A stretch of DNA of 64,000 nt from Yuukianura sp. NJ FZ-2021 (GCA_046563655.1 CM102286.1:2852001-2916000), one strand, 5' to 3'. Counted from the first letter of the stretch, positions 3,501-40,520 are shown. Translations and numbers: made by a program. The notes: generated by a model not told the origin, from the sequence alone.

Positions 3501-4099
3501 ATTAAGTTCTTGAGGAGATTATAATCACAACTTCTTGTTTTCCTGTAATCAAAACTAGAGGCACACACACGGATTCAGTTTCTACTAAAATGAAATACGT
3601 GTTAGCATTTTTTTTGTAAGTCTGTAGGGCTTTAAGATTTCCAAAATCTAGTTTTCTCACTTCTTTTTTTAAGGCCTAAAAAAGTTTTACAGGAAATGTT
3701 GAACAGAGTTCAAAGTCTCTCTTTTTGTTGCCATTTCCTGTTCAATCCAGTTCGAAAAGTTTCTTTCCTTAAGGGCCGGCTGGACAAACAAATCCTACTC
3801 AAATTGAAACTGAAACGAAAACTTTGAAGTGGGAATGCGTGCTTTAGAACCATAATAAAAGTGTTTCAATAGTGTGAAACTTTACACGCGCTTTTACTTT
3901 CATTCTTTGATCCAAAGAAAAAGTTTCAAAACCAAACATATAAAAATGTGAAATGATAGGCTGAAGCGGTGAGATAATTTTGAATCAAGAGTTTGTTCAT
4001 GATTTGCGGTTCATTGGTTCAGGCTTTTTGAAATTTGAAACAATTTTCTCTTATCAAGTTCGATAAAGCTTGAAATTTCAAAATTTGAAGTTTTCGAAC

Positions 4100-4966
4100 C
4101 TGCGGCATAATTGGTCCACACGTAACAGAGTCTGGCCCTCGTTCATGTACCATCATCAGTCCACCTATGATTATGTCACCGTCGATTTCTGACACTTTTT
4201 TGGAAGGACGCGGAGCACTTACACCTTCCAGAAGTAACAACGATGGTGATTGACCTTGAGCCACCAAAGTTCGATTTTCGGGAAAATTTGACTTATTTTC
4301 AAATTTTGGATGTTCAAATTTTGAGTCTTCTATAAAATGTGGCTCTACATTTTCACTAAAATTTTGAGTTGAATTTGTCCCTACTAAACTCTTAAGTGAC
4401 GATCGTCTTTGTCTTGCTCTAAGGCCTTTTAAATTTTCAATCAACTGAGAAATTGTTAAATTTTGTAAACCCCCAGGATAACTGTAGTCATGAAACAAAA
4501 TCTGGTCAGCATGGTCCCAGTCACTTTGAAATTTCCCACCTCGTCGTTCACTGCTATAGTACCTATTTAAAACACGCGCCGTGTGCCTAATCAGTTGGTT
4601 TCTACGGAAGGTCAAGTTGGGGTCACCAGGGCCCTTCAAGGGGTCAACTGAATCTGTCAGTTGGTTACTAAATGGAAGTCGAGAGAACAGTTTGTGTCGA
4701 ATGGCATTGACATGAATCTGGTCCTCAGCGTTCAATGGTCCAAGCAGCAAGTGACTCCGACGTCGTTCATGTCTCAGGGCCGTCGCAGGACCATTTTCAA
4801 ACTTTTTCAACTGATAATTTTTAATTGGCCAATCAGGAGTAGTGTCAATCCCCTTCAACTTCAAATCCTGCTGTTGCGATGACTTTTTGCCGCCATTTCC
4901 AAAACTCCCAGTTAGCACAATCAGAAGAACCAAAACCGCTCGGGAATCTGACATTCCCCGCTTCAT
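4100..4966 (-). CDS. mtt: Class C GPCR (metabotropic glutamate receptor-like, mangetout/mXR type), first coding exon
   Basis: ATG at 4966, hydrophobic signal (AVLVLLIVLTGSFG), long N-terminal extension, then the Venus-flytrap start DGDIIIGGLMMVHERGPDSVTCGPIMPQ, ending at donor CAG|GT (4100/4099). This GGLMMVH...TCGPIMPQ motif is recalled as typical of insect mangetout. Confidence 0.8.
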
Positions 4967-6009
4967 TTTGCCCTCCAAGCAATTTGTTCTGTTTGACACA
5001 TTTGTCACAACACTTTCACTTTTTAACTTTTTTCTCACTTTTTGTAAAAATTTCTTTCACTTTACAGTTCAATTGAATGCTAAAAAGTTCATAGGTAAAA
5101 TAAGAAAAAACAACTTTTATTTGAGATGAATCAGCTTGCTCCGTAGATGGAGGAGCCAATCAGACGCAAACGCGGGAAAATTTAAAAGTTACATTTTTAA
5201 GTTGCATTTGTTGTAAATTCTTTTCCCTTACTGTCTTTAGTTCTCTTTTTTAATCTGAAGGAAGAGTGAAACACTAGAACTCTTCCCTTTCCAAAGTGTG
5301 TGAACTGAATGAAGTGGAATGGAGAAAGCGAACTTTCTCTGCCCAAACTGCGCCTTTCCCCGTCTTACTTTGTAAAGTAGAATTTCAGAGGTAGGTTTTC
5401 GACAACAGTAGGCTAACCTTAGCCTACTGAGCATAACCTAATACACCTTATTTATTCTTACAGTGATCAATTCCAGTTAAGTCAAAGGTTGACACCTTCA
5501 AGCTAAGAAAGTTTGAAGTTACTTGGGCGTGAAACTTTATTTATTTAGGTAGAACAAGAAGGAGCACTTTAGCTGTGCAGTAAATTAGAGGCTTTCCTTT
5601 CTTCTTCTTTTGAGTGAAAGTCGATTTTCAAATTTTCCGCGAAGTAGATTTAAGCCTTTCATTCACTTTGGAGGAAAGACTTCGCGGGAAGTTTAAGGAG
5701 ATGGAGGATTTGTGGTAAAATAGGAAGGAATTGAATAATGTGATTAATCAACGCTATACGTCTTTTGGACGATGCTTTTAAGGCTGTTCTTTGTTAAGCG
5801 CATAGAATTTTTTAGGTTAGAAGTTCCGCCATTTTTCTTATAAAACGACTCATGCGTCAGTTAATCTAGAAATTTACATAATCTTGTTGCATTTTTGAAA
5901 ATGAGTGCATATAATCTATAGGACAAAACTGACTCTGACCACGGAAGTAGTTAATTAAGATGATTTTTTTTTCGTTTTACGAGGCATTGAAGTCCATTTT
6001 TTTGCCTTT

Positions 6010-6055: not shown

Positions 6056-7069
6056 CTTGCGAAATTTTTTCTTCTAAAGCAAGCCTAATATAAGAAATCA
6101 TAATTTCTAAGTCCGAAAAAATATAATTGGCAAATAGCAATTACAGAATCTGTAATTGTAGTTAACGATAAGTAAAGTGACCTTGGACCTAATAAGCACT
6201 GTACAGTATTTTTGTCATATGCCGTTTTCCTTCTAATATGGATTGTGTAGTAGTACACTTCAAGTATGGACAGCGCGTGCCCTCTGCACCGCTACAATTT
6301 CAACCCTGTCCTAAAAATACAGTGATTCGCAATTAATTTAATTAAAGTGGTTAAATTAACATCGTTAATTATTATAGTTAGATTAATTAGTTATTTTTTT
6401 TAAATGAAGAAAACTTTAGGTTTGCAGTTTGCGCAGATTACTGCGTGCCGTTTCCAATCCAAATTACACGAAACAGTAGAATTGAAAAAGAAAACCAACA
6501 CGTACATTCCACTAACACTATCGTCAGTTTTTACAAATATTCCAATTTATGAAAGCTAATTTTTTTGATGACTTTCACCTGCACTTTGGAAAGTGTAATA
6601 AAAATTTACGTTTTCAAGCGACTGTAAAAAGAAATTGAAGGTTTACCGTGTTCAAGGTTATTCTGTCATTCAAAATTTACTGGCAACCCTCATTCATAAA
6701 CACGAAACTAGACCAATTTTCATATTTTTTACATTCACAAATAGGAAATGCCGTGCATTTAGATTGTCGACTAAACACAAATCGATTAATTTGAACTACA
6801 TAGGAACTTATTACCACCTCCACTTATTTTTTTTTCAAAACGTAACGTTTAAACATAACTTCTACAACACTCACCTCCTCTACTATCAATCACATTTTAA
6901 TAATTTAGTTTTCAGCTACGCTTCAAAAATTGGCAGCAAAACCGGCAAAAATTTGCAGTTCTGGCAAAATCCTATTTTAGCACGTTGGCGCCCTGCAGTC
7001 TAGCGTTGAAAAGGAAATTGATCCCCGTGCATCCAAAACATACTCAATAGAAGTTGAATAGCTCTATTT

Positions 7070-8107
7070 TGTTACGAACCCAACCCGGTGGCTCCACTCT
7101 AACGGCTCCACCAGGTGGGTTCGTTCCCACTCTAAAGGTAGGTGGGACAGAACTACGCTTTGACATCGAAACAAAACTAACTAACTAACTAACTCTAGGG
7201 GTATCACCCGTAGGCGTCCCTCCTAGAATCGGTGTGACCCAGCAAAGGTCATAGTGGGGTCACTCGGATGAGGTAAGTGGCTACAGCCACTTCATCCACC
7301 AATGGTCATGGTGGGGCCAGGGAGGGCTTGACACCACCACCGCTAAGTTACGGTGGCTGGCCTGGTGTCTTGTAGGTGGGAAACCTAACCTAACCTGGTT
7401 GGTCGCACATTGAATTGGCTAAGAGCCGAAGAGAGAAAGAGATAGATGGAAAGAGAGAGAGAAAGAGATAGTGAAAGGAGGAGAAAGGGAATGGCTACTT
7501 ACCTGAGGCCTTGGCTGAGATGAACACGATCGGACGGTCGTGTGGAGTCCCTTGGTTCCTCCAGGAACGTCCGTAGTTGCTTACTCCAATCCTTCTACCC
7601 TCTATCTCCAGCTAAACCTGTTCTCCGACAACTAAGGCTTAGAGAGTTCGATGGAAATAATTTGATAGTCAAATTAGCTGGAACAGTGGTCACTGTGAAA
7701 TAGTCTGTGGTTTAATCTCTACTTAAACTGTCGACATGCTTTGTCGGGACACAAGCCAGAAATCCGTAGGAAGCCAAATCGGAGACTGACCCGGAGGAAA
7801 AGGACGCGAGTCCTTTTGTTCAGCTCTGAAGTGAGGGCCCTTGGTGACAAGAGCCACCCTCACTTCAGGCAAGCCTTTGTCTTAGCTTGTTGCTAAGTGT
7901 GAGTTTGGGTTGGAAAGCCAGGGCTAATTCTAATTAGCCGTGACCCTCTCGTCCTCCTTCCAGAATCTTCCTTTCCTTCTGCCGAAGGAACGGAGGATTC
8001 TGGGAAAGTGAATGACCGCACGTGGGACTGGCCATTTGCTCAGCCGTGACCTGGTGGGGCTGGCCACCTCCGTCGGGTCACGGTGGAGACATAGTGCTAC
8101 AGCATAG
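7070..8107 (-). repeat. Additional variant LTR copy in tandem with the 3' LTR
   Basis: Near-identical to the other LTRs, but differs around 7948-7955 (ccctctcgtcctcc vs ccctccggttcccc) and ends ...catagtgctacagcatag instead of ...catagtgttacagccgtaaca. Confidence 0.92.
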
Positions 8108-9148
8108 TGTTACGAACCCAACCCGGTGGCTCCACTCTAACGGCTCCACCAGGTGGGTTCGTTCCCACTCTAAAGGTAGGTGGGACAGAACTACGCTTTG
8201 ACATCGAAACAAAACTAACTAACTAACTAACTCTAGGGGTATCACCCGTAGGCGTCCCTCCTAGAATCGGTGTGACCCAGCAAAGGTCATAGTGGGGTCA
8301 CTCGGATGAGGTAAGTGGCTACAGCCACTTCATCCACCAATGGTCATGGTGGGGCCAGGGAGGGCTTGACACCACCACCGCTAAGTTACGGTGGCTGGCC
8401 TGGTGTCTTGTAGGTGGGAAACCTAACCTAACCTGGTTGGTCGCACATTGAATTGGCTAAGAGCCGAAGAGAGAAAGAGATAGATGGAAAGAGAGAGAGA
8501 AAGAGATAGTGAAAGGAGGAGAAAGGGAATGGCTACTTACCTGAGGCCTTGGCTGAGATGAACACGATCGGACGGTCGTGTGGAGTCCCTTGGTTCCTCC
8601 AGGAACGTCCGTAGTTGCTTACTCCAATCCTTCTACCCTCTATCTCCAGCTAAACCTGTTCTCCGACAACTAAGGCTTAGAGAGTTCGATGGAAATAATT
8701 TGATAGTCAAATTAGCTGGAACAGTGGTCACTGTGAAATAGTCTGTGGTTTAATCTCTACTTAAACTGTCGACATGCTTTGTCGGGACACAAGCCAGAAA
8801 TCCGTAGGAAGCCAAATCGGAGACTGACCCGGAGGAAAAGGACGCGAGTCCTTTTGTTCAGCTCTGAAGTGAGGGCCCTTGGTGACAAGAGCCACCCTCA
8901 CTTCAGGCAAGCCTTTGTCTTAGCTTGTTGCTAAGTGTGAGTTTGGGTTGGAAAGCCAGGGCTAATTCTAATTAGCCGTGACCCTCCGGTTCCCCTTCCA
9001 GAATCTTCCTTTCCTTCTGCCGAAGGAACGGAGGATTCTGGGAAAGTGAATGACCGCACGTGGGACTGGCCATTTGCTCAGCCGTGACCTGGTGGGGCTG
9101 GCCACCTCCGTCGGGTCACGGTGGAGACATAGTGTTACAGCCGTAACA
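8108..9148 (-). repeat. 3' LTR (1041 bp)
   Basis: Same sequence as the 5' LTR; preceded on the minus strand by a polypurine tract. Confidence 0.95.
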
Positions 9149-9161
9149 CCACCTCTCCTCC
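9149..9161 (-). promoter_or_regulatory. Polypurine tract
   Basis: Minus strand GGAGGAGAGGTGG immediately before the 3' LTR TG; preceded by a hairpin AGCTGAT-GGGAC-ATCAGCT. Confidence 0.8.
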
Positions 9162-10697
9162 AGAAAGCTGATGTCCCATCAGCTTCTGATAGATTCCGGG
9201 TTACATAATTACCGGTGTGAGTTTCTGGCTTGGTTTACATTGGGACAAGTTGTACAATTTGTAACTTAAATGAAAGATTTTTCATTTTTCAAACAGTTTA
9301 AACTCATTATTGGGTTCTAATATTAGTAATGTAAACTTTAGAACTTCCGGAGGGCTTAACTAACATTCTCCTCATACGGAATTTTTTTCTTAGTCAAATT
9401 TAAAATTTAAAGTAATTTAAGTCAACCTAAAAGCATTCGCTATAATTATTTTGGAATACGTGGGAATTACCAAAGCAATGAATATTAATAGCCAATGGCG
9501 GCAACGGATGTTGTGGCATAGGAGTCAGTGGTTAGGATATTTGTATATCGGGGTATCTGGTAGACGCTTCTGATGGTACCACTATCGTATTTCTTTTACC
9601 GATTTACTTCCAATAGAGAGAAATTACTTAGCTTACGTAACTTACACACTTGACATTAGTTTTTTTTTTTTTTTTTTTTTCAGCTTATAAGCCTTCTCTA
9701 AGTTTAGGACCTTAAATGATTTACATGGCAATAATAGTTGTGGTGTACTTGGTCAAACATATATCAATAGCTATGACATACGTCCTATGTAACTTGTCAA
9801 TTACATACGAACTAGTTAGATGATATCGTAAAATACTTATTCAATTTATAACTAGATAAATTGTCATAGAAGGATAGAAGGCAGTTCATGCTCGCAACAA
9901 GTTAGTTGAAAAGTTAGTAGTTAAAAGTTGGCAGCTAGTTAGGAATAGAGATATAGCTGATGATTCTAGTTTACATAACGTATATAACTTATATAGTTGT
10001 CATGATTTACATAGCGTACCTAACTTAGATTAGTTATGATACAATGGGGTTGTTTTCGTTTGTGTCAAATTTTGCACAAAATGATACGAGTTGTAAATTA
10101 TGCAATATTACATGGATAATTCAGCATAGAGAGATAGACAGAGACAGAGAGGCAGAGAGAAGTATTTCGGAATTTACACGAGGATAGAGCTAAAATACAT
10201 ACTATAATTTGTACAGACCCTTCGACCCGGTCACATGGATATGCGAGGACGCAGTGATCCTGCTGGTGAGTATATAGAATATCAAATGCGTTTCTAATTA
10301 CAAGTGTATTAGGATTGTAAATCTCATAAGTAAAGTTATATCTTGGGGCGTACTCTATGTTTTATACGCTACTTACTGTTTTAGTGTTTTTGTGTTAGTG
10401 TAATTTGTATATACAGTTAATACTTCCATGTAATCTAGTTGATTCATACCGATTTACGGCGTCTGATTTGGAATCATAAACATATATATGTACAGTTATG
10501 TAAAGTTACAGCGAAGTATGGTGCTACATATTTATAGCTATTTGATCCATCAGCCAAAATTTTAAGTAGTACAGCGTATTAGTACCATCAGAATAGGGCA
10601 AATGAACAAAAGAATTACGACAGGACAGTGTTCGTATTTGTATTCATGAGGTTTTGGAACCGGGAGTGGGCAGTGGGAGAGTGAGGAGACTCATCAT

Positions 10698-10902
10698 CAG
10701 ACATGTCAAAAATATTTACTAAAAACTAGCAAAATATTTAATTAAATACAATATTTACTGAAAACGCTGGAAATATTTGCGAACTTAACATGAAGTAAAC
10801 GTTAAGTACATTAAGTAAGTGAATATTTAGGAACGGAAAAGCCCGAAATATTGATTTTGTGAACATTACAGGTATGGGAACTAAATATTTTTGCCATGTC
10901 TG
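10698..10902 (-). mobile_element. hAT-type MITE nested in the LTR element
   Basis: TIRs CAGACATG(T/G)CAAAAATATTT; perfect 8-bp TSD CTCATCAT (10690-10697, 10903-10910); homologous copies at 44941 and 47292 in the opposite orientation. Confidence 0.85.
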
Positions 10903-11074
10903 CTCATCATTGTTCTGGATTACCCACGAGTAAAACATTATTGGGTATGGAGTAATCGTCTCAATTCTACGTAACTCGCTTCCCGTATTTTTCTTTAACC
11001 TAAAATAAGAGCATAAAGCTAAATTACGACATGTAATTCAAGAACATGAAGATCTTAACCTATGAAATTGGAAA

Positions 11075-12610
11075 TTAACATATGTCGTGAGGATGACCGA
11101 AGAGAATAGTTGGTTGGTGGTCATTGGAGTCATCATTTCGGGGGTAGTCTTGAAGTAACTTTTCGTAGCCATCAGTGAGGAATGGTGCTCCGCTCGATGG
11201 TAGTCGTTCTGAGAAGAGGCCGATGGGCGACGGCATTCGGGGTATTTCGACTGTGTCGGCTGAGGTGGACTGGGTAGGTTCGGTTTGGGTTGCCGGGGAA
11301 GCAGTGTCTTCGGGCGTCGGAGAATCGGTCTGTGGCATCTCGGGTATCTCTTGTTGTCCCCACTGGGTGTCCTTCAGAATTCTTTCGGTTACCAGAGCAA
11401 TAGGAGTCGACTGCATTCTGTATTGTCCATGGGTTTCCAGTGACCTTTCGTCTTTAGGCTTCACCCGCAAGTTCTCCTTTGTTGGATGACCATGGTAGTC
11501 ATAGGCATATCCTCGGGCTGAGCATCCGGGCATGTTGGTGTCTCCTGGGGTCGTCACTACCTTTGGCTGAGGGGCTGGAGGCGGCACGTCATATCCCTCA
11601 TGGCTCGGAGGATTCCAAGTTTTAGGCGGAGTTCGGCTTTTCGAAGCGTGGTGAACATCTAGGTTGAATGTCGGTTGGAACTTGTCAACTTCGGCTGCTC
11701 TGAATACATACTCTCTGTCTGCAACGTCCATGTCAGTGTTTCCAGCTGACTCAGCAAGCTCCAAAAGATTACGAAGTTGGGACATCGTTTGTGGTGAATG
11801 GAGACTGATCTGTCTTTTGATACCAGGGTGGAGGCCCCGCAGTGTATATTTGACCCGTAGGGTGTCACTCATCTCTGGGTCTACTCGGTCAGCTATATTC
11901 TGCATGTGGACGAAGTAACCCAAGGAAGTTTCTCCTTGTCTTTGTTCCCTTGACCAGAGTAGCCACTCATTGTCCTGGGCAGAGGGTGAGCTTGTGCCGT
12001 GTTTCTTGAACTGTGTCGCAAGTTCTTCCCAAGTCCATTGACCTTTGCCTTGTCGCTGGCGTTCATTGGAAGCGGCACTGTACCAACGGCTAGCAAAGCC
12101 AGACAAATATAATGGGAAGACAATGAGCTTATGGTGCTCATCCCATCCGTTACAGACGCTGATGTGATCGAAGCTTTCCAAATAAGCTTTTGGATCTGAG
12201 CCACGTCGCCCGGTAAATTGTTGTGGATGAATTGGGATTCTAACCGGTGGCAAATCAACGTTCATCGGAAAAGGATCATTGTCGCTTCCGTTTCCCGACG
12301 AATGTAAATAATCGTCATCTTCATCCTGTGGCTGGGGTTTCTGCGCCTGGCTCACAGTATGTTCTGTGGTCGTGTTAGATTTGGGCAGAAAGATTAGGCC
12401 AGAATTTCTGGAACCACTAGCGAGGGCCGGTCGGCTGTTTCTTGTGGCAAGAGTCGGTGTAACGGATGTTTGAGAGGGTTTTGATGGTTGAACCTCAAGA
12501 GTTCCATCGCCACTCCCTTCAGTTTCGTTTGAAGACGATTCTTCAGACTCAGTATAGTGTTGTCCGCTTTTTGCAAAAGCAGCGTTACGCTGTTGTGTTA
12601 GCTTATCCAT
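11075..12610 (-). CDS. gag: Retrotransposon Gag (capsid domain, Ty3/Gypsy type)
   Basis: Uninterrupted ORF of about 510 aa from ATG 12610; capsid motif FTGRRGSDPKAYLESFD...NGWD...LYLSGFASRWY...TWEELATQF...REQRQGET...LRGL; no CCHC knuckle. Confidence 0.9.
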   Translation of the reverse strand: MDKLTQQRNAAFAKSGQHYTESEESSSNETEGSGDGTLEVQPSKPSQTSVTPTLATRNSRPALASGSRNSGLIFLPKSNTTTEHTVSQAQKPQPQDEDDDYLHSSGNGSDNDPFPMNVDLPPVRIPIHPQQFTGRRGSDPKAYLESFDHISVCNGWDEHHKLIVFPLYLSGFASRWYSAASNERQRQGKGQWTWEELATQFKKHGTSSPSAQDNEWLLWSREQRQGETSLGYFVHMQNIADRVDPEMSDTLRVKYTLRGLHPGIKRQISLHSPQTMSQLRNLLELAESAGNTDMDVADREYVFRAAEVDKFQPTFNLDVHHASKSRTPPKTWNPPSHEGYDVPPPAPQPKVVTTPGDTNMPGCSARGYAYDYHGHPTKENLRVKPKDERSLETHGQYRMQSTPIALVTERILKDTQWGQQEIPEMPQTDSPTPEDTASPATQTEPTQSTSADTVEIPRMPSPIGLFSERLPSSGAPFLTDGYEKLLQDYPRNDDSNDHQPTILFGHPHDIC

Positions 12611-13155
12611 GCTGACAACAGCTGCAACAGACAACAATTCTCAGATTAATCGTTTATTAAACTCCTAGCTAGTAAATCCCGCAGAAAGATGAAGAATCAG
12701 AGTAGAAAGAGAACAGTCTAGGATAGATGGCCTTAAGTAGCCTTTAGTTGTAGTCCGGATATCAGATTACGCTACTTCGTAATTTCGGAATTCGGAAAGA
12801 GCTTACTGATTCGCTCTAGGTTGTCGACGTTGGAGGTTGTTCGGAGTAAAGCATACTATTTGTATTACTAAAATAACACACTCATTCGAGTCTCATTAAA
12901 GCATACCTTAAATTTACTACATTCAAACAACAGTCATTCAGAGTAACATTCAACAGTCTGGGCCCAGTATTCAAGAAGAAACATTTTTACGAAGCATTCA
13001 AAATTTATAACTTAACATTCCGCAATCAAAACAATCAAAATCAAAACAGTCAAAATCATAATAGTCAGTCAGTATCGATACAGTCAAACACAAACTGTCA
13101 ACGAACAACACCGTGAACGAATCTGTAAGTACAGGACAGTGAGACCTTGGGCTCA

Positions 13156-13317
13156 GCTTGACCGTCAGGGTTAATTGTTAACCCAGGGTGGACTAGTTAG
13201 TCTCTCACCTGAAGCGTACCAAGAAATATTACAGAGCAGTCAGACTTTGGATTTGGCTTGACCGTCAGGGCTATTTTTATAACCCAGGGTGGGCTAACCT
13301 AGCCTCTCACCTGAAGC
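13156..13317 (-). repeat. Two ~60-nt direct repeats with conserved stem-loops in the retroelement leader
   Basis: Copies at 13156-13215 and 13256-13317; differences fall in loops or preserve base pairing. Confidence 0.75.
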
Positions 13318-16300
13318 CTATCAGATCATAGCAGAACAGAAGGCGCCATCAGATTCAGAACAGAAGTCAATTATGTTTCTATTCCAGATTAAAATATTCT
13401 GGAATTATGCAGAAGTCAGAACAAATATCCGTAGATTCCAAAATTTTGAAGTTCCGGAATTAAAGAGGAGACAGAGAAGAGTGGGATTTAGCTTAGGAGT
13501 TTCTCATTCTAAATGTCAAAATTTTACGGAAATGAAGTATACTTTCTTATGTCCGAATATGAGCTTTTTAGAAACCAGACGGACGTCGGAGCAGATCAGA
13601 CGTTTTTGAATTTTGAAACGTAAAGTTGGCTGGAGAGGCCGAAGTTTTGATTTCAGAGGTTAGATATCATGTTTCTAAGTCATCCTGGAATTAGATTCAC
13701 CTTTGAGCACAATATACTTCGGTGTTAAATTCCGGTGAAATTTAGTGTTATACTAAATCAATTCGATTATCCGTAAGTAAAACAGGGTATGCTATAGTAG
13801 GCGCCGAACCAAGTGCGGCTTATAATTCCCTTGGGTAGAGAATTTTAGTTCTAACCTGAAACAATTGTAAGTTGAGCTTATAGGCAGCTTCAAATTTCGG
13901 TTAAACGCGTTGAGGTTATATCATTATTCAACGACGACATTTTTATTTATATGAGTTAAAACATTAGATATAAGCTGTGCAGAAATGATGAGGCACACAA
14001 AGGGTTATTGTTTGCTCCTTGAGAGCAAAACTTTGCAGAAACAACAGTATGAAGAGGCCTGGCACCCAAAAGGCCATGGGTGTGATTATTTGGCTAAACT
14101 TTCCAGCTTGGACATTAACAGCGGAGAACTACCCCAAAAGGTCATGGAGTGTTCACTTGATGACTGTTGTCTAGTGACTGGAAGCTGAGAGTCACCCTAA
14201 TAATCATCGGGTGCTCTTTATTGATAGCTGGAGTTTTAAACTTAATATTTACTTATGTTTATGTTAACCGAAGTTTTAAATCTTATAACCTATTGTCTTG
14301 AGGGATTGATTGGAGGAAGCAATCGCAAGTCAGAAATGCAGCTACATTTAGTCGAACTCAAAATTTTAATTCACCTGAATTCCGATCATATTAAAATTCT
14401 GATTTTGGTTGGATTGAAATAAAGTAATTTCAAAACTAACCTAACCTAGTTGAGAAGCTGGGGTTGTGGGAAAATTTGAAGATGCAGGTCACTCAAAAGG
14501 TCATTAAGTGCCAACTTCTGGTTAATTAGTACTTACTTTGATTCATTACTAGCATTCAAGTATGGCAGAGGAGTATTACCAGAATTTGTCAGAAAATGTA
14601 ACGGAAGTGGATAGAAGAAGTGATTTTTCTTTGTATTAAGTTAAATTCAGAAATATTAAAATTTCACTTGTTATACAAGACTCGAGGGGGAAGGCGGGGG
14701 GGGTAGGGGGGGGGTTGTGGAGGGGCTGTTCAATCAAAAGGTTGATTGAGTGTCACTATGGTTCTAAATCGTATCGAACATTGATCGTTAACTTGTAGTT
14801 AACCGGATAAAGTTAATGTAACTTGGCTGAGATTTAAATTTAGCTTTCTGAAGTTAACCCTGTTAACCTAATCACTAACTCCGGTAAAGTTAGTGAACTG
14901 AGATTTAGTCAAGTCCGGACTTAACTAATTACTCATTGTTTGAACGGAGATTTTGAATTATCAGTGGAACGGATTACACTAAGTTGTATGACTTTAAGTT
15001 TAGTTAAGTCGTTAGTGTCAGTTCAGAACTCATAAAGAATAAGTTTTTGGAACATAACAATAAAACTAATGGGAAGTTGGGGAGACAAATCGTCTTTCCC
15101 ACGTCTATTTCTGAAAGTTGACCTCAGGGTCACACACCATTTGGTCCCAAAAGCACGCACTTGTTGCTATGCGCACTTCTTGTAGGGTGATGAGTCAGGC
15201 TGAGGGCGTTGGCCATTGGTGGGTGTGTTACTAGGTGGCAACGGGTCTGTTACTAGGTGGTAACAGCCACACGGGAATTGAAATTACGAATGAGGATTTA
15301 ACTTAGTTACTAGCGAGATACATTCAGTCGAGGCATTGACCTCGCATCAGGTTGCTGCAGTGACCGGCCCCACTTTATGTGGGTCTTAGGTAGAAACTGA
15401 AGATTTTAGGTTGGAGCCAGCATCCAGGCGTTGGCTCGACATTTACTTGTTGCTAGGGTATTTATGAATTTCTGTCGGATGTAAGTAATGTACTTTGAAC
15501 ATAAGTTCTGTTTGAATACTTAATTTAAGGATTTTACTAGAAAATGGTGGGATGAACTGTAGCCGATGGTTGTCGGGTCATTCGCATTTTAGTGACAATA
15601 AATGCGATTTCAGTGGAGGGTGATTATTCTGCCTCCATACTTTAAAATCGGAATTAGAGTGGGTCACCGTGGGTCTTGACGTGGTCCCACCCGATTGTAT
15701 CTGAATTTAAGAATTGTGGGGGGGATGTGTGGCAAGACACCATTCGCACTATATTGCGATAGCGACCTGTCTTCCGCTAGGATTTGCGATGAGTTCGAAT
15801 TCGTCGTCGTGGACAATTTTCCCTCTCATAGTCCGAAACTCGGAGATGGGCTTGGTTGAAGTCACCGCAGGTCACGGGACTATTCCACCTGAATTTAATG
15901 AGTTTTTAACCTACCTATTACCAAGCCTGAATTCAAGCTTCAAGGAAATCACTCTGGACTCAGAAGATTGATAGTTGATTCCTCGGAATAAGTTACAAAG
16001 CTTATGGAAATATGATTTCCTTTCAAAGATGCGTACTAATAATTATTACCCGATTTAACTATGCGTAAGCCAATATCCTTCCAATTAGCATAAAAGGATT
16101 CTGTACAACTTATTTTTGTTGGACCGTGGGTCACACGATATCGCAACTGCGACTTTTGGATTTTGCAATATATTCCCCCCCATAATTTGGTGGGGCGGTG
16201 GGTCCGTCTTTGTAGGTGGAAGACCAACCATACCAGTTTCTCCTTATATAATTTTAACGCTAAACTTATTAAAACTAAAAAAAATCTGAAATTTTTAAGG

Positions 16301-16436
16301 CTTAGAAAGACATTGCAACTTGAAAAATGAAAGGTGTATTATGAAATTAGCAATTTCCGATGCGAAAGCGTAAATTCTGAACAACGGAACAGAATTATGG
16401 TATTTAAGAAAGGGTCACCAAAGTTTCAGCCGTCTG

Positions 16437-16445
16437 AGCCCCCAC
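16437..16445 (-). promoter_or_regulatory. Primer-binding site, tRNA-Pro-like
   Basis: Minus strand reads LTR-aaagTGGGGGCTCagacgg; TGGGGGCTC is the first 9 nt of the known tRNA-Pro PBS (TGGGGGCTCGTCCGGGAT). Confidence 0.7.
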
Positions 16446-16448
16446 TTT

Positions 16449-17489
16449 TGTTACGAACCCAACCCGGTGGCTCCACTCTAACGGCTCCACCAGGTGGGTT
16501 CGTTCCCACTCTAAAGGTAGGTGGGACAGAACTACGCTTTGACATCGAAACAAAACTAACTAACTAACTAACTCTAGGGGTATCACCCGTAGGCGTCCCT
16601 CCTAGAATCGGTGTGACCCAGCAAAGGTCATAGTGGGGTCACTCGGATGAGGTAAGTGGCTACAGCCACTTCATCCACCAATGGTCATGGTGGGGCCAGG
16701 GAGGGCTTGACACCACCACCGCTAAGTTACGGTGGCTGGCCTGGTGTCTTGTAGGTGGGAAACCTAACCTAACCTGGTTGGTCGCACATTGAATTGGCTA
16801 AGAGCCGAAGAGAGAAAGAGATAGATGGAAAGAGAGAGAGAAAGAGATAGTGAAAGGAGGAGAAAGGGAATGGCTACTTACCTGAGGCCTTGGCTGAGAT
16901 GAACACGATCGGACGGTCGTGTGGAGTCCCTTGGTTCCTCCAGGAACGTCCGTAGTTGCTTACTCCAATCCTTCTACCCTCTATCTCCAGCTAAACCTGT
17001 TCTCCGACAACTAAGGCTTAGAGAGTTCGATGGAAATAATTTGATAGTCAAATTAGCTGGAACAGTGGTCACTGTGAAATAGTCTGTGGTTTAATCTCTA
17101 CTTAAACTGTCGACATGCTTTGTCGGGACACAAGCCAGAAATCCGTAGGAAGCCAAATCGGAGACTGACCCGGAGGAAAAGGACGCGAGTCCTTTTGTTC
17201 AGCTCTGAAGTGAGGGCCCTTGGTGACAAGAGCCACCCTCACTTCAGGCAAGCCTTTGTCTTAGCTTGTTGCTAAGTGTGAGTTTGGGTTGGAAAGCCAG
17301 GGCTAATTCTAATTAGCCGTGACCCTCCGGTTCCCCTTCCAGAATCTTCCTTTCCTTCTGCCGAAGGAACGGAGGATTCTGGGAAAGTGAATGACCGCAC
17401 GTGGGACTGGCCATTTGCTCAGCCGTGACCTGGTGGGGCTGGCCACCTCCGTCGGGTCACGGTGGAGACATAGTGTTACAGCCGTAACA
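16449..17489 (-). repeat. 5' LTR (1041 bp)
   Basis: TG...CA ends with 7-bp terminal inverted repeat; no difference from 8108-9148 found by eye; followed on the minus strand by the PBS. Confidence 0.95.
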
Positions 17490-17778
17490 ATTTCTCGTTT
17501 GATTTGAAGAAGAAATGTAGTAACCGGAAAATAGAGTGAAAATGGAGTAAATTGAGGCAGAGACGTTTATATTTCCCGCCAAAAAAGCGAAGATTCTAGT
17601 GGAAAGTGATTCCTTGTTTAGTTTGAGGTCTTCATTTCCAGGGGAAAAGTCGATGAGGGGTAAATGGTTGGTGTATATATTACTTTTCTGGGTTTCCTCT
17701 TTCTAGGAATCGTATAAATGTGCACTATTCGAGCCAAATGGTTTTTATTAGACTCCAGGGAAGATGCTGCTACCCAGG

Positions 17779-19260
17779 CAAGGTTCCTTGACAACGAAAA
17801 GTCCATTTTTTTAACAGGTTGGGTACTACCTCGCTTATTGACAAACGAAAAAAAAAATTAGTGCCAATTTATTAGTACCAATACAAAAAGTTGGTAGCAA
17901 ATCGTACACAAAATTTAAAAAGTTCGGCTGTATTGCTATGACTACGATGCCCTAAAACGAAAAGACACAATTGTTGCAAAATCAAAAAAAAACATGAGGT
18001 ATTACCCAACCTGTTAAAAAAATCAAAGTCAACAAACCTTGTACCCGGGTATCTAGAAAAAAAGTGAAAGAATCTGAAAACGGATAGACGGAGATAAGGC
18101 TCCTTAAGGATTCAAGTCTTATTGCTGCGTGAAGGAAGCTCCCGCAGAGATTTGCAATTGAGAATTGGACTGTTACCTTTCTTCTGCCAGTATTACTGGC
18201 TGACTGGCCGTGAAGGAGGTCACCGGCGGTGGGACAACGGTGGGACATTTGCATCTTGAAGGATTCATCGTCAGATAACGCCTGACTCTAATGTTTTGTT
18301 GATGGTTATGACCTGGATAACAGTGAAATGGAATAGGAACAAACAAGATTCCAATGGAACACACCGTGGAGGAGGAAATTGTAATAAACGGAGAAATTGG
18401 CACACTTCAGTGCCAGATTTATATATGATGTTTCACCATTTTCAAAAACGTATTTTGAATTGGATCCAGGATTCTCAGAACTTTTTAGTTAAACGGCAAC
18501 ACTTTGGAAAGCAAATACCATTTCCCTAGTGAGATATTTACTTCTATGCATACGCAAAGAGGGTCCAGATAGGATCTGGATGCTAATGAACCAACAAATA
18601 ACAACTTGGCAACCACCACGTTTTCCCAACAAAACTTTGCTTCCAAATTTTCCATTCACTTTCCAATTCAGTTTTCAGTTTGTTCTGATTTTCAAACCAA
18701 GTTAAGCCAAACCCCGCCCTTCATTTTACTGGGTAAGATATTAAAAAGAATGCTTTCAAGCCAAGTTAAGCCACCCCCCCACCTCTAAATAACATAATTC
18801 CAAATTCCAAAAAGTTAAAAGTTTACTATGACAATCACTCTTTCTAAATAACATAATTCCAAATTCCAAAAAGTTAAAAGTTTACTACGAAAATCACTCT
18901 TTCTAAATAACATAATTCCAAATTCCAAAAAGTTAAAAGTTTACTATGAAAATCACTCTTTCTAAATAACATAATTCCAAATTCCAAAAAGTTAAAAGTT
19001 TACTATGAAAATCACTCTTTCTAAATAACATTTCAATCGTCAGTTCAATCTATTTTAATTTCAAAAAAAATTTCAACGGGTGACGTCACATTCAAAATTC
19101 ATTTTGCCGTGGTTACCAAACAAATTTCCTGTTCTCACTACCTGTAGTATTCTATTTACCTTGGATTGGTACCAATTTTTTATTAGCATTTTTTTCTCAA
19201 CAAGCGAGGTAGTACTCAACCTGTTAAAGAAAATTAACTTTTCGTGGTCAAGGAACCTTG
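17779..19260. mobile_element. Degenerate non-autonomous DNA transposon with ~100-bp imperfect TIRs
   Basis: CAAGGTTCCTTGAC(A/C)ACGAAAAGT...TTAACAGGTTG(G/A)GTACTACCTCGCTT at 17779 and its reverse complement ending at 19260; partial inverted copy near 17996-18022; no TSD found. Confidence 0.6.
18784..19031. repeat. 59-bp tandem repeat, about 4.2 copies
   Basis: Unit TCTAAATAACATAATTCCAAATTCCAAAAAGTTAAAAGTTTACTATGAAAATCACTCTT starts at 18784, 18843, 18902, 18961 and 19020. Confidence 0.95.
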
Positions 19261-19508: not shown

Positions 19509-20959
19509 TTTTAGTCTTCTGGAGACGCATGTCTACGACATGCTGAAGAAGACTATTGATACGACTTTGTCCGTCCGTCTGTCTGTCCGTAACGTTTTTT
19601 AGGACCCTTTGCGATCAAATATTACATCCATTATTGACGGGGTGTCCTGCATCGCCCAAGTGTTTTCATTAGGTCTACATTGCACTTAAAGCCGTACATT
19701 AACAACGCAGAATTGGGCGGCTACTTTACGTACCCGCAGTATCGTGGCTCCGCAAAACTGTTTTGGTTTCGATTGCACTCAAGGTATTTATAAACAACGG
19801 AGTTTTGATCTGGTCATTTTCTTGCAGTATGTTTAGTTACGTTGTTAAATTAAGACTGATTAGAGGGTAGAAAATGCGGCTTAAATTCGTAACATGTAAA
19901 CAGTGAATGACAAGGTTCGAATTTTCAAATTTTCCAACATATACCATTTGTAATTTTCCAACATATACCATTTGTAATTTTCCAACATATACCATTTGTA
20001 ATTTTCCAACATATACCATTTGTAATTTTCCAACATATACCATTTGTAATTTTCCAACATATACCATTTGTAATTTTCCAACATATACCATTTGTAATTT
20101 TCCAACATATACCATTTGTAATTTTCCAACATATACCATTTGTAATTTTCCAACATATACCATTTGTAATTTTCCAACATATACCATTTGTAATTTTCCA
20201 ACATATACCATTTGTAATTTTCCAACATATACCATTTGTAATTTTCCAACATATACCATTTGTAATTTTCCAACATATACCATTTGTAATTTTCCAACAT
20301 ATACCATTTGTAATTTTCCTACATATACCATTTGTAATTTTCCAACATATACCATTTGTAATTTTCCAACATATACCATTTGTAATTTTCCAACATATAC
20401 CATTTGTAATTTTCCAACATATACCATTTGTAATTTTCCAACATATACCATTTGTAATTTTCCAACATATACCATTTGTAATTTTCCAACATATACCATT
20501 TGTAATTTTCCAACATATACCATTTGTAATTTTCCAACATATACCATTTGTAATTTTCCAACATATACCATTTGTAATTTTCCAACATATACCATTTGTA
20601 ATTTTCCAACATATACCATTTGTAATTTTCCAACATATACCATTTGTAATTTTCCAACATATACCATTTGTAATTTTCCAACATATACCATTTGTAATTT
20701 TCCAACATATACCATTTGTAATTTTCCAACATATACCATTTGTAATTTTCCAACATATACCATTTGTAATTTTCCAACATATACCATTTGTAATTTTCCA
20801 ACATATACCATTTGTAATTTTCCAACATAGAACATCAATTCTATGAAAACGGTTTCTCAGTTCGTCCACAGTTTTCCGGTAGGCCGGTCTCAATGTCGTA
20901 TCAATTGTCAACTCCCTCCAGAAGACCTATGCTCAACCCTTGAGCATTGCCCTACCTTG
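19509..20959 (+). mobile_element. Non-autonomous Helentron (HINE/DINE-1-like) element with central tandem array
   Basis: 5' T-run plus subTIR GTCTTCTGGAG with nearby partial inverted copy, (GTCY)n microsatellite at ~19569-19590, 3' subTIR CTCCAGAAGAC (20916-20926), hairpin ATGCTCAA-ccc-TTGAGCAT and end CCTTG|TTT. Confidence 0.8.
19928..20829. repeat. 24-bp minisatellite, about 37.6 copies
   Basis: Unit AATTTTCCAACATATACCATTTGT; a single substitution seen at 20320. Confidence 0.98.
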
Positions 20960-22696
20960 TTTAAAGTGGCCCTGACATACACAAGAAACAGATTTTAAAA
21001 TGAGGTTGTTAAAAAAGTTATTTTAATTTTTCATACGTTTTCTTTTAAGTAGCAAAATTTTAGAACATTGAAAAATTTGCCGCGGGGTGAATAACATGTG
21101 CAAAGTGATTTTCTGGAAAGAGGATTAAGAATACCCGGGTATTAGTGAAACTTGTCGCCCAAGGGCTCTATATCCCAAAATTTTGAGTCCTGGGAAACTG
21201 GTTTATAAAGCGAGTGGCCGCAAAAGTAATTTGGCGAATAAATTGATCCGATTTTCTACCAAAATCGGCCAAATTGGGCCTGTGGTCTGAACGGTGCTTT
21301 AGTTTATCTTCGTAACCAAGGTGATTTATGAACAGCAGAAAATGGAGGGCAGAGAAGCGCTTTCTTTTGGAAAGCTGCTTAGACCCGCTTCTTCCAAAAT
21401 TGTGTTTTTGGAGGGAATGAAAGTAATGGGAGATAAGTTGGTTATATTGTTCTTATGGAAATGGATAATGGTGACCTTAATGGTCGGAACGTATGTGGAG
21501 ATGCTTCTTTAGCGCCATTTTGATCCAATGAAAGTAGGATTTTCCCGCATTCAACTTCAAGTTGAAAACAAACATGATGATGAAGATGATGATGATGGTC
21601 TGAGTGAGACCGCATTTCCCTCCCATTTTCAAGAAAAACAAAAAGTATTAAAAGAAAACAGCGAGGGATATCGCTGGAGACGTTTTTTCTTACCCGGGTA
21701 ATTGAAAGTTTGCGCTGCTCGCAGCGTTCCAAAACAAAATAAATGCAATAGATGCAAAAAATATCATTTCCTTGGTCATATTTGACCCCGTTCTTCTGCA
21801 TAATTGAACAATTTTCTCCTATATAAATTATTTTTTGACAAACCAAGTTATTGGTTTGTCCAAAAATAATCACGATTCGTGATTTGCAAAAAACGACATC
21901 TTCAAATTAACTTTTCCTTCTCAACGAAAAAACAACTTAAAAATAAGCCCGACTTTACGTTGGAGTAATATCTAACGACTCTGTTCTTCCTCAAGGAGCC
22001 AAACAGTGTCAAGAACTTGACGTTGACACTCTCAAAATAGAAATCAAGATACGAGGTCAGGTTGATTCGAGCAACTCAAGGTTAAATTGGTTGGAAGTCA
22101 ACACTACTTTCAACTTGAGACATTCAGTTTTAATTAAACTTCGTCTCTAATTGGACTTATGGAGCTCTGAACCTACTTTGAACCTAGCGTTAATTTCATA
22201 TTTCATGTCTTTTAAGTGAATCATTTTTTTAATATGCAAGAACCACAAAGACACTAAATTGTACCACTACGGAAACCAATTGCGTTTAGTATGTAGCTCA
22301 ATTCGTGACTTCCAACAGTGTTTTTCCCGATTTTTGTGTGTGCTTTGGAATGTGGCTTTTAAAGTTTAAATCTTCGTATACTGTTCAGAATGTTTCGAGA
22401 TTACTCACGATCAGTTTAAAATGACGCAAACAATTGCCCTACTTCAGACACGGAAGCTCAATTTGTAAAAATTTGGCAGTAGTATGGTACAAGTATTCCC
22501 TTTAAATTTAAGTAAGTAGACATCGACGTGCGTGGAATGATAACTATGTTATCGCTTCTACAAACAATGACTTTAGATAAAGCACTTTAAACATTTCACC
22601 AGTGTATTCAATGCCACTGGAAGTAAAAGAGTTTGCGCAGAGTTGGTGCAGTTAATTTCTAAAAGGCGAAAAATATTTTCAAAATTCAAAACAAAA

Positions 22697-23713
22697 ATGG
22701 CTCGTTTTTTGAGTCTAATTGTGTCGTTAGTCCTTATTGTAGCCTCAACCAGTTATGGGCAACAGTTTGTGCTTCGTAGCAACACAGGCGCAGAAGACTC
22801 TTCCACGGTCATAGGAGTTTTAGGCTCTAGAGTCGAGTTGCCATGCGTCGTCGACGTTTCTGCGCAAGATCAACACTTCATCTGGCAAAAGAAGCTGAAC
22901 GAAGATACTTGGCTTGACATGGCCGAACTCTGCGAAGAAAATAAAAGATGCAAAGTCATTACAGAAATTGGATCGGGAAATTCAAAAAATATGACCCTCG
23001 TTTTTCAAAAATTGCGCCGATCCGATCTGGGCACTTTTTCCTGCGGCGTTCCTCTGGATCGGTCAACAGCTGATGTCTATTCGATTGAACTTGATCCAAA
23101 CGTGTACCTTGTCTTGAAAGAACCGGTTTCGGTAGAACACGAATTTCCTTTCGGTATGACCAGTCACACGGTACTGGTCGGTGACGACCTAACGTTAAGT
23201 TGCCACTTGACACGTGACCATGGACCGGTAGAAGATCAACAATACAGAGTCCGGTGGTGGATTCTTGGACAATGGCGGAATCCTTGGGATCTACCTCCGA
23301 CACAGTACACCTACGACGAATCGACAGAATTCTCGAACCTAACACTCAAGAACGTAACGATGGAGGATCGTGGAGAGTACGAATGCATCCTATGGAATGC
23401 TCACAAGTTTCCGGAATTTACTCCCGACAAGATTGAAGCTAGATTGTCCGATCATGAAGACGAGCCGCCAGTGATCTTGGTTCGAGTCAAGGAGCGCAAT
23501 CAGTGGGAGCTTCCGACGATTACAATTGGGGTTGAAGTTGCTCTGATTCTCATTATAATGATTCTGGTTGAAACGACGAAGTTGCTGCCAGACGGAGACA
23601 ATAGTAGTGACGGCAGTACTGATGAAGAGCTCAAGGCCATTCGTAAGCACAACACAGCCTATTTCGAAGAAGACATCCAACCAATGTCACATGATGAAGG
23701 CAAACCCATGTAG
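22697..23713 (+). CDS. Basigin/neuroplastin-like two-Ig-domain type I membrane protein, intronless
   Basis: Signal peptide, two Ig folds (LPC..W..DLGTFSC; LSC..W..DRGEYEC), juxtamembrane VRVKE, TM helix containing Glu (TIGVEVALILIIMILVE), acidic tail, AATAAA after the stop. Confidence 0.8.
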   Translation: MARFLSLIVSLVLIVASTSYGQQFVLRSNTGAEDSSTVIGVLGSRVELPCVVDVSAQDQHFIWQKKLNEDTWLDMAELCEENKRCKVITEIGSGNSKNMTLVFQKLRRSDLGTFSCGVPLDRSTADVYSIELDPNVYLVLKEPVSVEHEFPFGMTSHTVLVGDDLTLSCHLTRDHGPVEDQQYRVRWWILGQWRNPWDLPPTQYTYDESTEFSNLTLKNVTMEDRGEYECILWNAHKFPEFTPDKIEARLSDHEDEPPVILVRVKERNQWELPTITIGVEVALILIIMILVETTKLLPDGDNSSDGSTDEELKAIRKHNTAYFEEDIQPMSHDEGKPM

Positions 23714-40088: not shown

Positions 40089-40520
40089 TTTTTTGCCAGA
40101 ATAAAACTATTTCGATTTTTGATTTTTTTGAAACTGCTCAAACACTGTTTCTGGAGTGACCATCCAGGTTTACTTTGTATGCGTTTTAATGCTAACCTGG
40201 AACGGGAAAACGGAAACAAATTGTGGTGTTCAAATTCTTCAAAAAATAACTGAACAAACCCTGCGGCTTCATATTTCCTGTTTCGCAAATTCTCAAGACA
40301 TCGCCTTGGTTGGTTTAGCAAAAAAAAAAGTGCTGCTCATTTTAAAATTCAAAATCAAATTTTATTGGGTTTTGTCCAATACAGTTTTTGTTTCCCCAAG
40401 CGTAAAAACTCAAAGCTTAACATTAACATCAAAGTATTCAAAATATGAAAACAGGTCGTACCTTACACCACTTGAGTCAATTAACTTGAAGTTAATTGGC
40501 TAACATGAGTTCTAATAAAG

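Follow-up and report, generated by a model that had tools for sequence, protein, structure and literature searches.

The locus described here raises the question of how an LTR retrotransposon that carries a capsid gene and no enzyme gene could have moved, and what its Gag protein can still do. It lies in a 64-kb window (the whole stretch of DNA that was analysed) that also contains V-set/Ig, ANF_receptor and Ras exons near the element, in agreement with the animal genome named in the original prediction. The element, on the minus strand, probably derives from an LTR retrotransposon of the Ty3/gypsy type, is non-autonomous and was most likely mobilised in trans. It has kept the cis signals for reverse transcription and integration: its LTRs end in TG...CA, and a PBS-like site, polypurine tract and 4-bp target duplication are all present. 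One gene, gag, is intact, while protease, reverse transcriptase, RNase H and integrase are gone.

Read on the minus strand, the element consists of LTR C, the PBS-like site, the leader, gag, the trailer, the polypurine tract, LTR B and LTR A (Table 1). It is 9382 nt long (9.4 kb) from B to C and 10420 nt (10.4 kb) when LTR A is included. The 7.3-kb interior originally predicted is that between LTRs B and C (9149-16448), not that of the whole 7070-17489 span. No other copy or solo LTR of the element, and no pol-bearing relative, was found elsewhere within the 64-kb window.

Table 1. Features of the element and of its borders, from the right to the left end (positions in the 64-kb window).
Feature	Position	Strand	Description
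Right target-site duplication copy	17490..17493	.	ATTT, matches 7066-7069
5' LTR, copy C	16449..17489	-	TG...CA termini; 1041 nt, 1041/1041 identity with copy B
PBS-like site	16426..16444	-	TGG start; 4 nt downstream of 5' LTR C
Second PBS candidate	16412-16420	-	TGG-initiated; at +29 (first candidate at +5)
Leader	12611..16425	-	non-coding; 3838 nt with the LTR edge (16448) as starting point
gag ORF	11075..12610	-	511 aa + stop
Capsid (CA) core of Gag	11666..12238	-	aa ~125-315; two helical lobes
Post-capsid Gag tail	11078..11665	-	aa ~316-511; disordered, P/T/S-rich, acidic, without zinc knuckle
Trailer	9162..11074	-	AT-rich, non-coding; ~1.9 kb
MITE-like short repeat	10673..10927	.	nested in trailer; 46-nt imperfect inverted ends
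Polypurine tract	9149..9161	-	13 nt, 12/13 purines; adjoins 3' LTR B
3' LTR, copy B	8108..9148	-	1041 nt, identical to copy C
Extra LTR, copy A	7070..8107	-	1038 nt, head-to-tail with B; junction-side end rearranged
Left target-site duplication copy	7066..7069	.	ATTT, matches 17490-17493

The locus contains three LTR copies, which are long direct repeats with TG...CA ends. The identical pair of 1041-bp LTRs that had been predicted exists as B and C, but the copy that starts at 7070 is a third one, shorter and not identical. LTR A is 99.5% identical to B and C (1029/1034 positions over its first 1034 nt). It differs by five substitutions (7949, 7950, 7953, 7955 and 8097) and by the rearrangement of its last ~4-7 nt, and all these differences lie at most 159 nt from the A|B junction; the remaining 879 nt (7070-7948) are the same in all three copies. 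On the outside, the LTRs end precisely, with the 4-bp duplication next to them. The predicted target duplication is thus present, but it brackets A and C, and none is found around the identical pair; a match of 4 nt in such AT-rich DNA is expected by chance in ~0.5-1% of cases, as estimated from base composition. One simple integration event fails to account for the locus, as ATTT brackets A and C while B and C are the identical LTRs.

The complete identity of B and C argues for a young element, in keeping with the original prediction of recent activity, but a duplication, gene conversion or the assembly could also have produced it, in place of recent transposition. The third LTR would have arisen outside normal reverse transcription, or later than it, through recombination, an aberrant LTR-LTR joint or an assembly error. 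It is possible, though doubtful, that LTR A was created by the assembly, where sequence at a repeat or haplotype joint was falsely duplicated in tandem, and that the real element is a plain two-LTR element of 9.4 kb. The clustering of the differences near the A|B joint, next to 879 identical nucleotides, is what is expected for an error-prone contig or read end, and without LTR A the ATTT duplication would bracket a normal LTR pair. On the other hand, LTRs joined head-to-tail, with small deletions or fillers at the joint, have biological origins too, and are known from 2-LTR circle joints and from inter-element recombination. Multi-LTR elements are also reported for TRIMs (PMC4079214) and tandem arrays have been noted (PMC10886601), which likewise speaks against an artefact.

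Both the PBS-like site and polypurine tract lie on the strand of gag, and neither was found in the opposite orientation of the element. The polypurine tract is where the original prediction placed it, next to LTR B. The predicted PBS is better called PBS-like: it starts with TGG at a distance of 4 nt from LTR C, but no tRNA was matched to it, the 64-kb window having no tRNA genes. Self-priming of the Tf1 type was rejected, as the LTR holds no complement of at least 9 nt. Neither AATAAA nor TATAAA occurs in the LTR, which means that canonical TATA box and poly(A) signals are absent, and ATTAAA occurs once, at LTR position 395. The only matches of the element to RNA families are two of the LTRs to mir-616 (22 bits, for a gathering score of 100), which are below threshold and were taken as chance.

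The search for pol was negative whichever method was used, in keeping with the prediction that neither an ORF nor a remnant of it is present. Pfam found no pol domain in 48 hand-picked stop-to-stop ORFs of at least 40 aa (of 65 listed) in the interior, and nothing of protease, reverse transcriptase, RNase H or integrase when all six frames were translated past their stops (set as X). In tblastn searches with three gag-pol polyproteins, only gag matched at E<=1e-8 and nothing else appeared below E=1.7; with all 150 relatives as queries, nothing outside gag came below E=0.018. A degraded pol in the interior is therefore ruled out by these Pfam and tblastn searches.

The predicted gag of about 510 aa is indeed open over 511 codons, compared to 177 stops in one other minus-strand frame of the interior. 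The protein scores 24.6 bits against Pfam Retrotrans_gag (cut-off 24.1). phmmer retrieves 830 relatives at E<=1e-3 (best 6.6e-58), the nearest of which are only 44-47% identical; in word-index searches of proteins, Gag had no match at either near or longer lengths. In the AlphaFold2 model, 10-residue block means range from 83 to 98 over residues 121-310, with nine helices at 140-310, and the N- and C-termini have low pLDDT, in line with their predicted disorder. According to this model, the CA core is intact and adopts, with confidence, a two-lobed fold of the Arc/Ty3 type. An alignment of 41 sequences has four invariant columns, all of which Gag carries by definition, and nine nearly invariant columns, listed by the residues of the studied Gag. 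None of the late-domain motifs PTAP, PPxY, YPxnL and FPIV occurs in the protein.

Foldseek matches the CA core to the dArc1 capsid (1.1e-6) and also to rat and human Arc, the dArc1/2 capsids and the PNMA2 capsid, with the Ty3 capsid at 4.2e-3; the Arc-type matches reach E=1e-6, compared to E ~2e-2 for HIV CA. The profile of the Gag family matches Arc at 7.8e-9. Sequence and fold matches thus favour a Ty3/Arc-type over a retroviral capsid. In three gag-pol relatives, Pfam recognises domains from the Ty3/gypsy-type set, namely protease, reverse transcriptase, RNase H and integrase, with a chromodomain in one of them.

The part of Gag which follows the capsid is very different from that of its relatives. 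No CX2CX4HX4C zinc knuckle occurs in any frame of the interior, including downstream of the gag stop, as had been predicted for Gag itself. A knuckle is present in 100 of the 150 relatives, and reading the sequences of the seven best homologues reveals one at the C-terminal end of six, the seventh being a 216-aa fragment (Pfam zf-CCHC is detected in three of the six that were scanned, P0003, P0004 and P0007, and not in P0001, P0002 and P0006). Because six of the seven best homologues have it, the loss of the knuckle looks derived. The charge is also reversed: residues 311-511 contain 17 K/R and 27 D/E (net -10), whereas the tails of the homologues (at least 60 aa) are net positive in 34/34 cases (median +12, lowest value +1). 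The net charge of the whole protein is -19, and only 1/110 relatives is as acidic.

The tail shows a weak collinear match with the knuckle region of P0002, which was reached by 2/500 shuffles and in which the four zinc ligands are all replaced; the same test with P0001 was not significant (258/500). Clear homology ends at residue 375 and ~136 further codons are open, for which the chance is ~0.002 as estimated from base composition. A truncation of Gag just before the knuckle was considered, but the weak P0002 match favours decay in place instead, although P0001 gave no such match. As far as the protein sequence tells, Gag lost its nucleocapsid part in situ: there is no zinc knuckle, the tail is acidic, not basic, and Gag most likely has no nucleocapsid activity of its own. 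The original prediction that the element makes its own capsid and selects RNA in a different manner is therefore retained for the capsid fold only: since the whole post-capsid tail is acidic, unlike those of 34/34 relatives, independent RNA packaging would be unlikely, and not just different.

The ~3.8-kb leader and the ~1.9-kb trailer are both present as predicted; neither shows a Pfam domain in the scans of the 48 ORFs and of the six read-through frames, and the leader has no Rfam family. The leader has 49 ATGs, of which the longest ATG-ORF encodes 48 aa, a ~100-bp tandem duplication at 13130-13323 and, by a crude rule, one GTRAGT splice donor at 14536 and no strong acceptor. Because 49 ATGs lie upstream of gag in a leader of this length, ribosomes that scan the full-length RNA probably do not translate it; its mRNA is probably spliced or internally initiated. 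The region 9149-11074 (trailer and polypurine tract) is 66% A+T. The MITE-like repeat of the trailer has ~76% similar copies at 44931-45143 and 47284-47480.

With neither an enzyme gene nor the RNA-binding end of its Gag left, the element would depend on another one for its movement. It would have been copied recently with Pol supplied in trans by a related autonomous element. A Gag that does not bind or package RNA normally could co-assemble with the Gag of the helper, as a passenger or interfering subunit, or have a non-packaging function. In its most ambitious form, which is rather unlikely as a whole, this proposal describes an invertebrate Ty3/gypsy lineage that still transposes gag-only, whose Gag was remodelled by selection into an acidic, capsid-only protein without nucleocapsid function. 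Such a lineage would be a mobile intermediate toward genes of the Arc/PNMA type, or its Gag would interfere with or exploit helper particles, and a spliced or internal transcript would bypass the 3.8-kb leader.

It is unlikely that the element is a one-off, dead, rearranged Ty3/gypsy copy, in which local rearrangement and nested insertions removed pol and brought in unrelated sequence, its LTR identity resulting from gene conversion, assembly or a local duplication. The three LTRs and the aberrant A|B joint do indicate a rearranged locus, and the MITE-like repeat nested in the trailer, the single copy within the 64-kb window and the LTR without canonical promoter or polyadenylation motifs also point in this direction. 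An acidic Gag without knuckle could likewise be the product of a gene that decays within a dead element, but the open frame argues against it: the four knuckle ligands are replaced and the charge of the tail is reversed, and yet 511 codons are open, which suggests long persistence under selection rather than a recent accident. Moreover, a simple deletion of pol cannot yield this layout, because gag is 3.8 kb away from the PBS, and the precise outer LTR ends with their 4-bp duplication do not fit a mere rearrangement either.

More improbable still is that gag is retained for a role beyond packaging from which the host or the element benefits, either in a mobile gag-only element nearing co-option or as an interfering or restricting protein: this would account for a capsid fold that is kept, with all invariant family residues, while the knuckle and the basic charge are discarded in an open frame, and has a precedent in the Gag of BHIKHARI-1/-2, needed for zebrafish development according to the accessible part of PMC12067270, but the intact and identical LTRs show that this gag does not belong with the fixed, domesticated genes of the Arc/PNMA kind, and a single locus is seen in the 64-kb window.

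Gag-only LTR elements are likely raw material for capsid-derived host genes (Arc, PNMA, the BHIKHARI Gag), and they may parasitise or regulate their autonomous relatives. In this respect, a useful case would be a young copy of the Ty3/gypsy type with identical LTRs, which has kept the capsid fold and shed both knuckle and basic tail. It would open the questions of the role of a capsid protein that no longer packages RNA, and of whether the loss of packaging comes before or after that of mobility. A single locus is a lead in this direction, not a result.

The element has the TG...CA direct repeats (B and C), the polypurine tract and the target duplication (around A and C) of LTR retrotransposons. 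Its Gag capsid is homologous to that of Ty3/gypsy elements (Metaviridae), but the PR-RT-RNase H-IN order of pol is missing together with pol, so that the assignment to this lineage rests on Gag.

The top structural matches of the CA core are Arc, dArc1/2 and PNMA2, and mammalian Arc is not known to have a zinc knuckle either. These are single host genes without LTRs, whereas the gag studied here has not lost its mobile context: it lies between intact, identical LTRs, with a PBS-like site and a polypurine tract. With LARD-type elements such as Culex cqUNK (up to 14.6 kb; PMC3286476), the element shares a large (>4 kb), mostly non-coding interior, small tandem repeats and the lack of a recognisable master copy. 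The interior of LARDs has no coding capacity and those elements have no ORF at all, unlike this one, whose 7.3-kb interior contains a 511-aa gag.

The element was originally likened to the TR-GAGs. As described in the available text of PMC4350172, these also have LTRs, a PBS, a PPT, a target duplication and a single Gag ORF without RT, they are presumed to be mobilised in trans, and Pfam Retrotrans_gag is detected in some of their families. The likeness does not extend to size, since the same text defines TR-GAGs as shorter than 4 kb (with a search filter of 1-6 kb), compared to 9.4 kb here, or 10.4 kb with the extra LTR, including a 3.8-kb leader. TR-GAGs have 5-bp duplications and at least two copies, and TR-GAG1 Gag has kept its zinc finger (PMC4350172), whereas the duplication is of 4 bp here and the finger is absent. 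The host also differs: of 18 papers with the term, the 17 listed are all plant-titled, and this host is an animal.

That gag-only elements are known in plants only, as the original prediction implied, does not hold, since the general kind is already known in animals (PMC12067270). In the portion of that source which is available, zebrafish BHIKHARI-1/-2 are described as non-autonomous LTR elements with gag and neither pol nor env, and chicken ENS-1 as the nonautonomous ENS-3 retrovirus variant with ERNI as Gag protein. Similarly, the present element has gag without pol or env between its LTRs. The BHIKHARI-1/-2 and ENS-1/ERNI elements are young and polymorphic, and the C-terminus of the BHIKHARI-1/-2 Gag is glycine-rich rather than of the zinc-knuckle type (same source); youth, a conserved CA and the absence of a classical knuckle are thus shared features. 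No description of an invertebrate gag-only element of the Ty3/gypsy type was found in the literature searched, Repbase and subscription journals being outside the search. The BHIKHARI and ENS-1 elements are of retroviral origin (lokiretrovirus; ERV-L relatives) and the Bik-1 Gag has an N-terminal coiled coil, as PMC12067270 reports in its available part. By contrast, going by these descriptions, the Gag studied here is set apart by a sequence and a fold that are Ty3/gypsy/Arc-like and by its acidic, disordered ends.

The repeat at the ends of the Yuukianura element is present in three copies, as found by repeat finding and direct comparison. The locus, with its three LTRs, is a real gag-only LTR element; it has Ty3/gypsy ancestry, and its Gag is unusual, being acidic and devoid of a nucleocapsid. 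The original prediction counted two LTRs and overlooked the extra copy, A, which adjoins the 3' LTR, B; the 5' LTR is named C. B and C are identical at 1041 of 1041 positions and both have TG...CA ends. The claim of identical 1041-bp LTRs thus holds for this pair, but not for the copy starting at 7070, which is three nucleotides shorter, differs from the others at five positions over its first 1034 nt (7949, 7950, 7953, 7955 and 8097) and has its final few bases, on the B side, rearranged. Likewise, the expected target duplication exists as a 4-bp ATTT on both outer flanks (7066-7069 and 17490-17493), but these flank A and C, and no target duplication was found around the identical pair B/C alone. 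The predicted 7.3-kb interior is the true distance from B to C (9149-16448), but the coordinates proposed for the element begin at A. The element is young-looking.

The sole long ORF, gag, and the cis signals define the minus strand as the coding one; the plus-strand reading offers neither a PBS-like site nor a polypurine tract. The predicted polypurine tract was recovered next to B (12 purines out of 13 nt). For the predicted PBS there is a candidate, a PBS-like site that starts with TGG; the 64-kb window contains no tRNA gene to match it with. No complement allowing Tf1-like self-priming was found. The LTR contains neither AATAAA nor TATAAA and only one ATTAAA.

Features of the element and its surroundings (positions in the window)
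Feature	Position	Strand	Remarks
LTR copy A	7070-8107		1038 nt; abuts B
LTR copy B	8108-9148	minus	1041 nt; 3' LTR
Polypurine tract	9161-9149	minus	13 nt; adjoins B
gag ORF	11075-12610	minus	511 aa
PBS-like site	16444-16426	minus	TGG start, 4 nt after C
Second PBS candidate	16420-16412	minus	
LTR copy C	16449-17489	minus	1041 nt; 5' LTR
ANF_receptor-type gene exons (ligand-binding region)	342-707, 4019-5056	minus	
Tandem array	18784-19031		59-bp unit, 4.2 copies, 98% matches
24-bp satellite	~19837-20926		repeat fills ~1 kb open frames on both strands
Single-exon ORF	22577-23713	plus	membrane protein, one V-set and one further Ig domain
Two low-complexity ORFs	25492-27873	minus	341 and 345 aa; rich in P, S, K, A, V
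Ras-family GTPase exon	35482-36042	minus	C-terminal half of the domain, then serine-rich tail
Four tandem single-exon ORFs	39324-44165	minus	234-269 aa; two subtypes alternating

Normal reverse transcription produces two LTRs, and read-through of tandem LTRs would, according to the standard strand-transfer model, be expected to give four. The joint between A and B consists of an intact LTR end followed by an LTR start lacking about 7 nt, plus a few gained nucleotides. It resembles the imprecise LTR-LTR joints that are known from 2-LTR circles or end joining. Copy A may have come from recombination of one copy with another or with a circular cDNA and a subsequent LTR-LTR deletion; local duplication is another candidate. 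A false duplication in the assembly is also a candidate: all the A-specific differences lie within 159 nt of the joint, the remaining 879 nt being identical in A, B and C, and this clustering is compatible with an assembly or read-end artefact and equally with a repair-associated error. If A were an artefact, what remains would be an ordinary two-LTR element with ATTT as its target duplication, in line with the original description.

The interior consists of a 3838-nt leader, gag and a ~1.9-kb trailer (66% A+T), in agreement with the lengths first proposed. In 48 stop-to-stop ORFs of at least 40 aa, hand-picked among the 65 listed, Pfam detected no domain of a protease, RT, RNase H, integrase or envelope protein; nor did it in the six whole frames (with X at stops), where Retrotrans_gag in the gag frame is the sole match. 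When the three gag-pol polyproteins among the relatives (1399-2239 aa, in which Pfam confirmed PR, RT, RNase H and IN) were compared with the 64-kb window by tblastn, gag was matched and all the rest had E≥1.7. A tblastn search with the best 150 of the 830 relatives of Gag gave 31 matches outside gag, all with E≥0.018. As far as these searches reach, the interior is as free of pol and its remnants as had been claimed, and the tBLASTn search of pol against it, proposed as a check, returned the gag match only. A simple deletion of pol from a full-length element is ruled out as the source of this layout, because gag lies 3.8 kb away from the PBS. No Rfam family scores above threshold in the interior. 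The leader contains a tandemly duplicated unit of ~100 bp (13130-13323, about 80% identity). The trailer harbors a MITE-like AT-rich repeat (10673-10927) with imperfect 46-nt terminal inverted repeats, ~76% similar further copies of which occur in the window at 44931-45143 and 47284-47480 (size ~215-255 bp).

Gag matches Retrotrans_gag narrowly above the Pfam cut-off (24.6 bits versus 24.1) and Ty3_capsid below that family's own cut-off. Scanning 1.84 billion representatives in full with HMMER gave 830 relatives at E≤1e-3, the top ones being P0001 (560 aa, 44% identity) and P0002 (550 aa, 47%). Only 3 of the best 150 exceed 900 aa, which says little, since gag and pol are commonly carried by separate ORFs. 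The AlphaFold2 model, based on a 41-sequence alignment, has nine helices in residues 121-310 (mean pLDDT of 83-98 over 10-residue blocks) and low confidence at residues 1-125 and 320-511, consistent with the long disordered termini expected. Foldseek matches in the PDB are the capsid domain of dArc1 (E=1.1e-6), rat and human Arc, dArc1/dArc2 and PNMA2 capsids and the Ty3 capsid (E=4.2e-3). At the sequence level, Arc is matched by the family profile (7.8e-9). The alignment has four invariant columns, by definition carried by Gag, and nine nearly invariant ones, listed by the residues of Gag. Given the predicted fold, the Arc/Ty3-type matches and the conserved columns, the capsid part of Gag is intact.

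The absence of a CCHC knuckle from Gag, already noted, is supported by the comparison with its relatives: CX2CX4HX4C is found in none of the frames of the interior versus 100 of the best 150 of 830 relatives. In six of the seven best relatives, read by eye, a zinc knuckle occurs at the extreme C-terminus, beyond a long linker; the seventh is a 216-aa fragment. Among six of them scanned for Pfam zf-CCHC, P0003, P0004 and P0007 are positive and P0001, P0002 and P0006 negative. The loss of the knuckle looks derived. In a local alignment, the last 60 residues of Gag are collinear with the knuckle region of P0002, with all four zinc ligands replaced; the score of 40 was equalled in 2 of 500 shuffles (258 of 500, not significant, for the P0001 tail). 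This only hints at an in-place replacement. The charge is stronger evidence of nucleocapsid loss than the tail alignment: the 201-aa post-capsid region has 17 K/R versus 27 D/E (net −10), when all 34 aligned relatives with tails of at least 60 aa have a positive net charge there (median +12, minimum +1). The whole Gag has a net charge of −19, and only 1 in 110 relatives with lengths of 300-900 aa matches it in acidity. Past the last clear homology (aa 375), ~136 further codons are free of stops, with a chance of about 0.002 estimated from base composition. Judging from its sequence, Gag has lost the part that usually binds RNA, with a reading frame that is apparently maintained.

The locus thus combines an identical LTR pair and cis signals with an intact capsid gene; enzymes and nucleocapsid features are missing. 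From this one locus, we infer a non-autonomous, recently copied derivative of Ty3/gypsy, to which a related autonomous element would supply Pol in trans and probably also a nucleocapsid-bearing Gag. The element's own Gag may co-assemble with the helper particles, interfere with them or act apart from them. The leader contains 49 upstream ATGs (the longest upstream ORF is 48 aa), and translation of gag from genomic RNA by scanning is therefore unlikely; gag is predicted to be expressed from a spliced or internal transcript. Neither a helper, a second copy of the element nor a solo LTR was found within the 64-kb window.

The ANF_receptor, V-set/Ig and Ras domains encoded by nearby ORFs fit the predicted animal genome. 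The ANF_receptor domain occurs in metabotropic-glutamate-type receptors; the exon at 4019-5056, whose start is signal-peptide-like, has the retroelement about 2 kb upstream. Both tandem arrays lie to the right of the element, at a distance of 1.3-2.4 kb. The 341- and 345-aa ORFs, which have no Pfam match, are possibly exons of one gene. Each of the four tandem ORFs has a signal-peptide-like start, a common cysteine pattern and a hydrophobic C-terminus, and the two that were scanned match no Pfam family.

This kind of element is already known; what makes this one a variant worth a genome-wide follow-up is its remodelled Gag together with its very long leader. TR-GAGs are defined as plant elements of <4 kb that encode Gag in a single ORF, have 5-bp duplications and occur in two copies or more (PMC4350172). 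The Yuukianura element would work in a similar mode, but it exceeds the size limit of <4 kb. LARDs and the large Culex elements are described as having no ORF at all (PMC3286476), whereas the Yuukianura element keeps gag. TRIMs and tandem LTR arrays have been published in animals (PMC10886601). A Ty3/gypsy-type gag-only element in invertebrates was not found in the accessible literature, which leaves Repbase and much else outside. Gag-only LTR elements in animals are already published (PMC12067270): zebrafish BHIKHARI-1 and -2 are non-autonomous and recently active and have gag but no pol or env, the Gag of Bik-1, which is required in development, has a glycine-rich C-terminus instead of a knuckle, and chicken ENS-1, whose Gag protein is ERNI, is a nonautonomous variant of the ENS-3 retrovirus. 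BHIKHARI and ENS-1 are described there as derived from retroviruses (PMC12067270), whereas the Yuukianura element is Ty3/gypsy/Arc-like.
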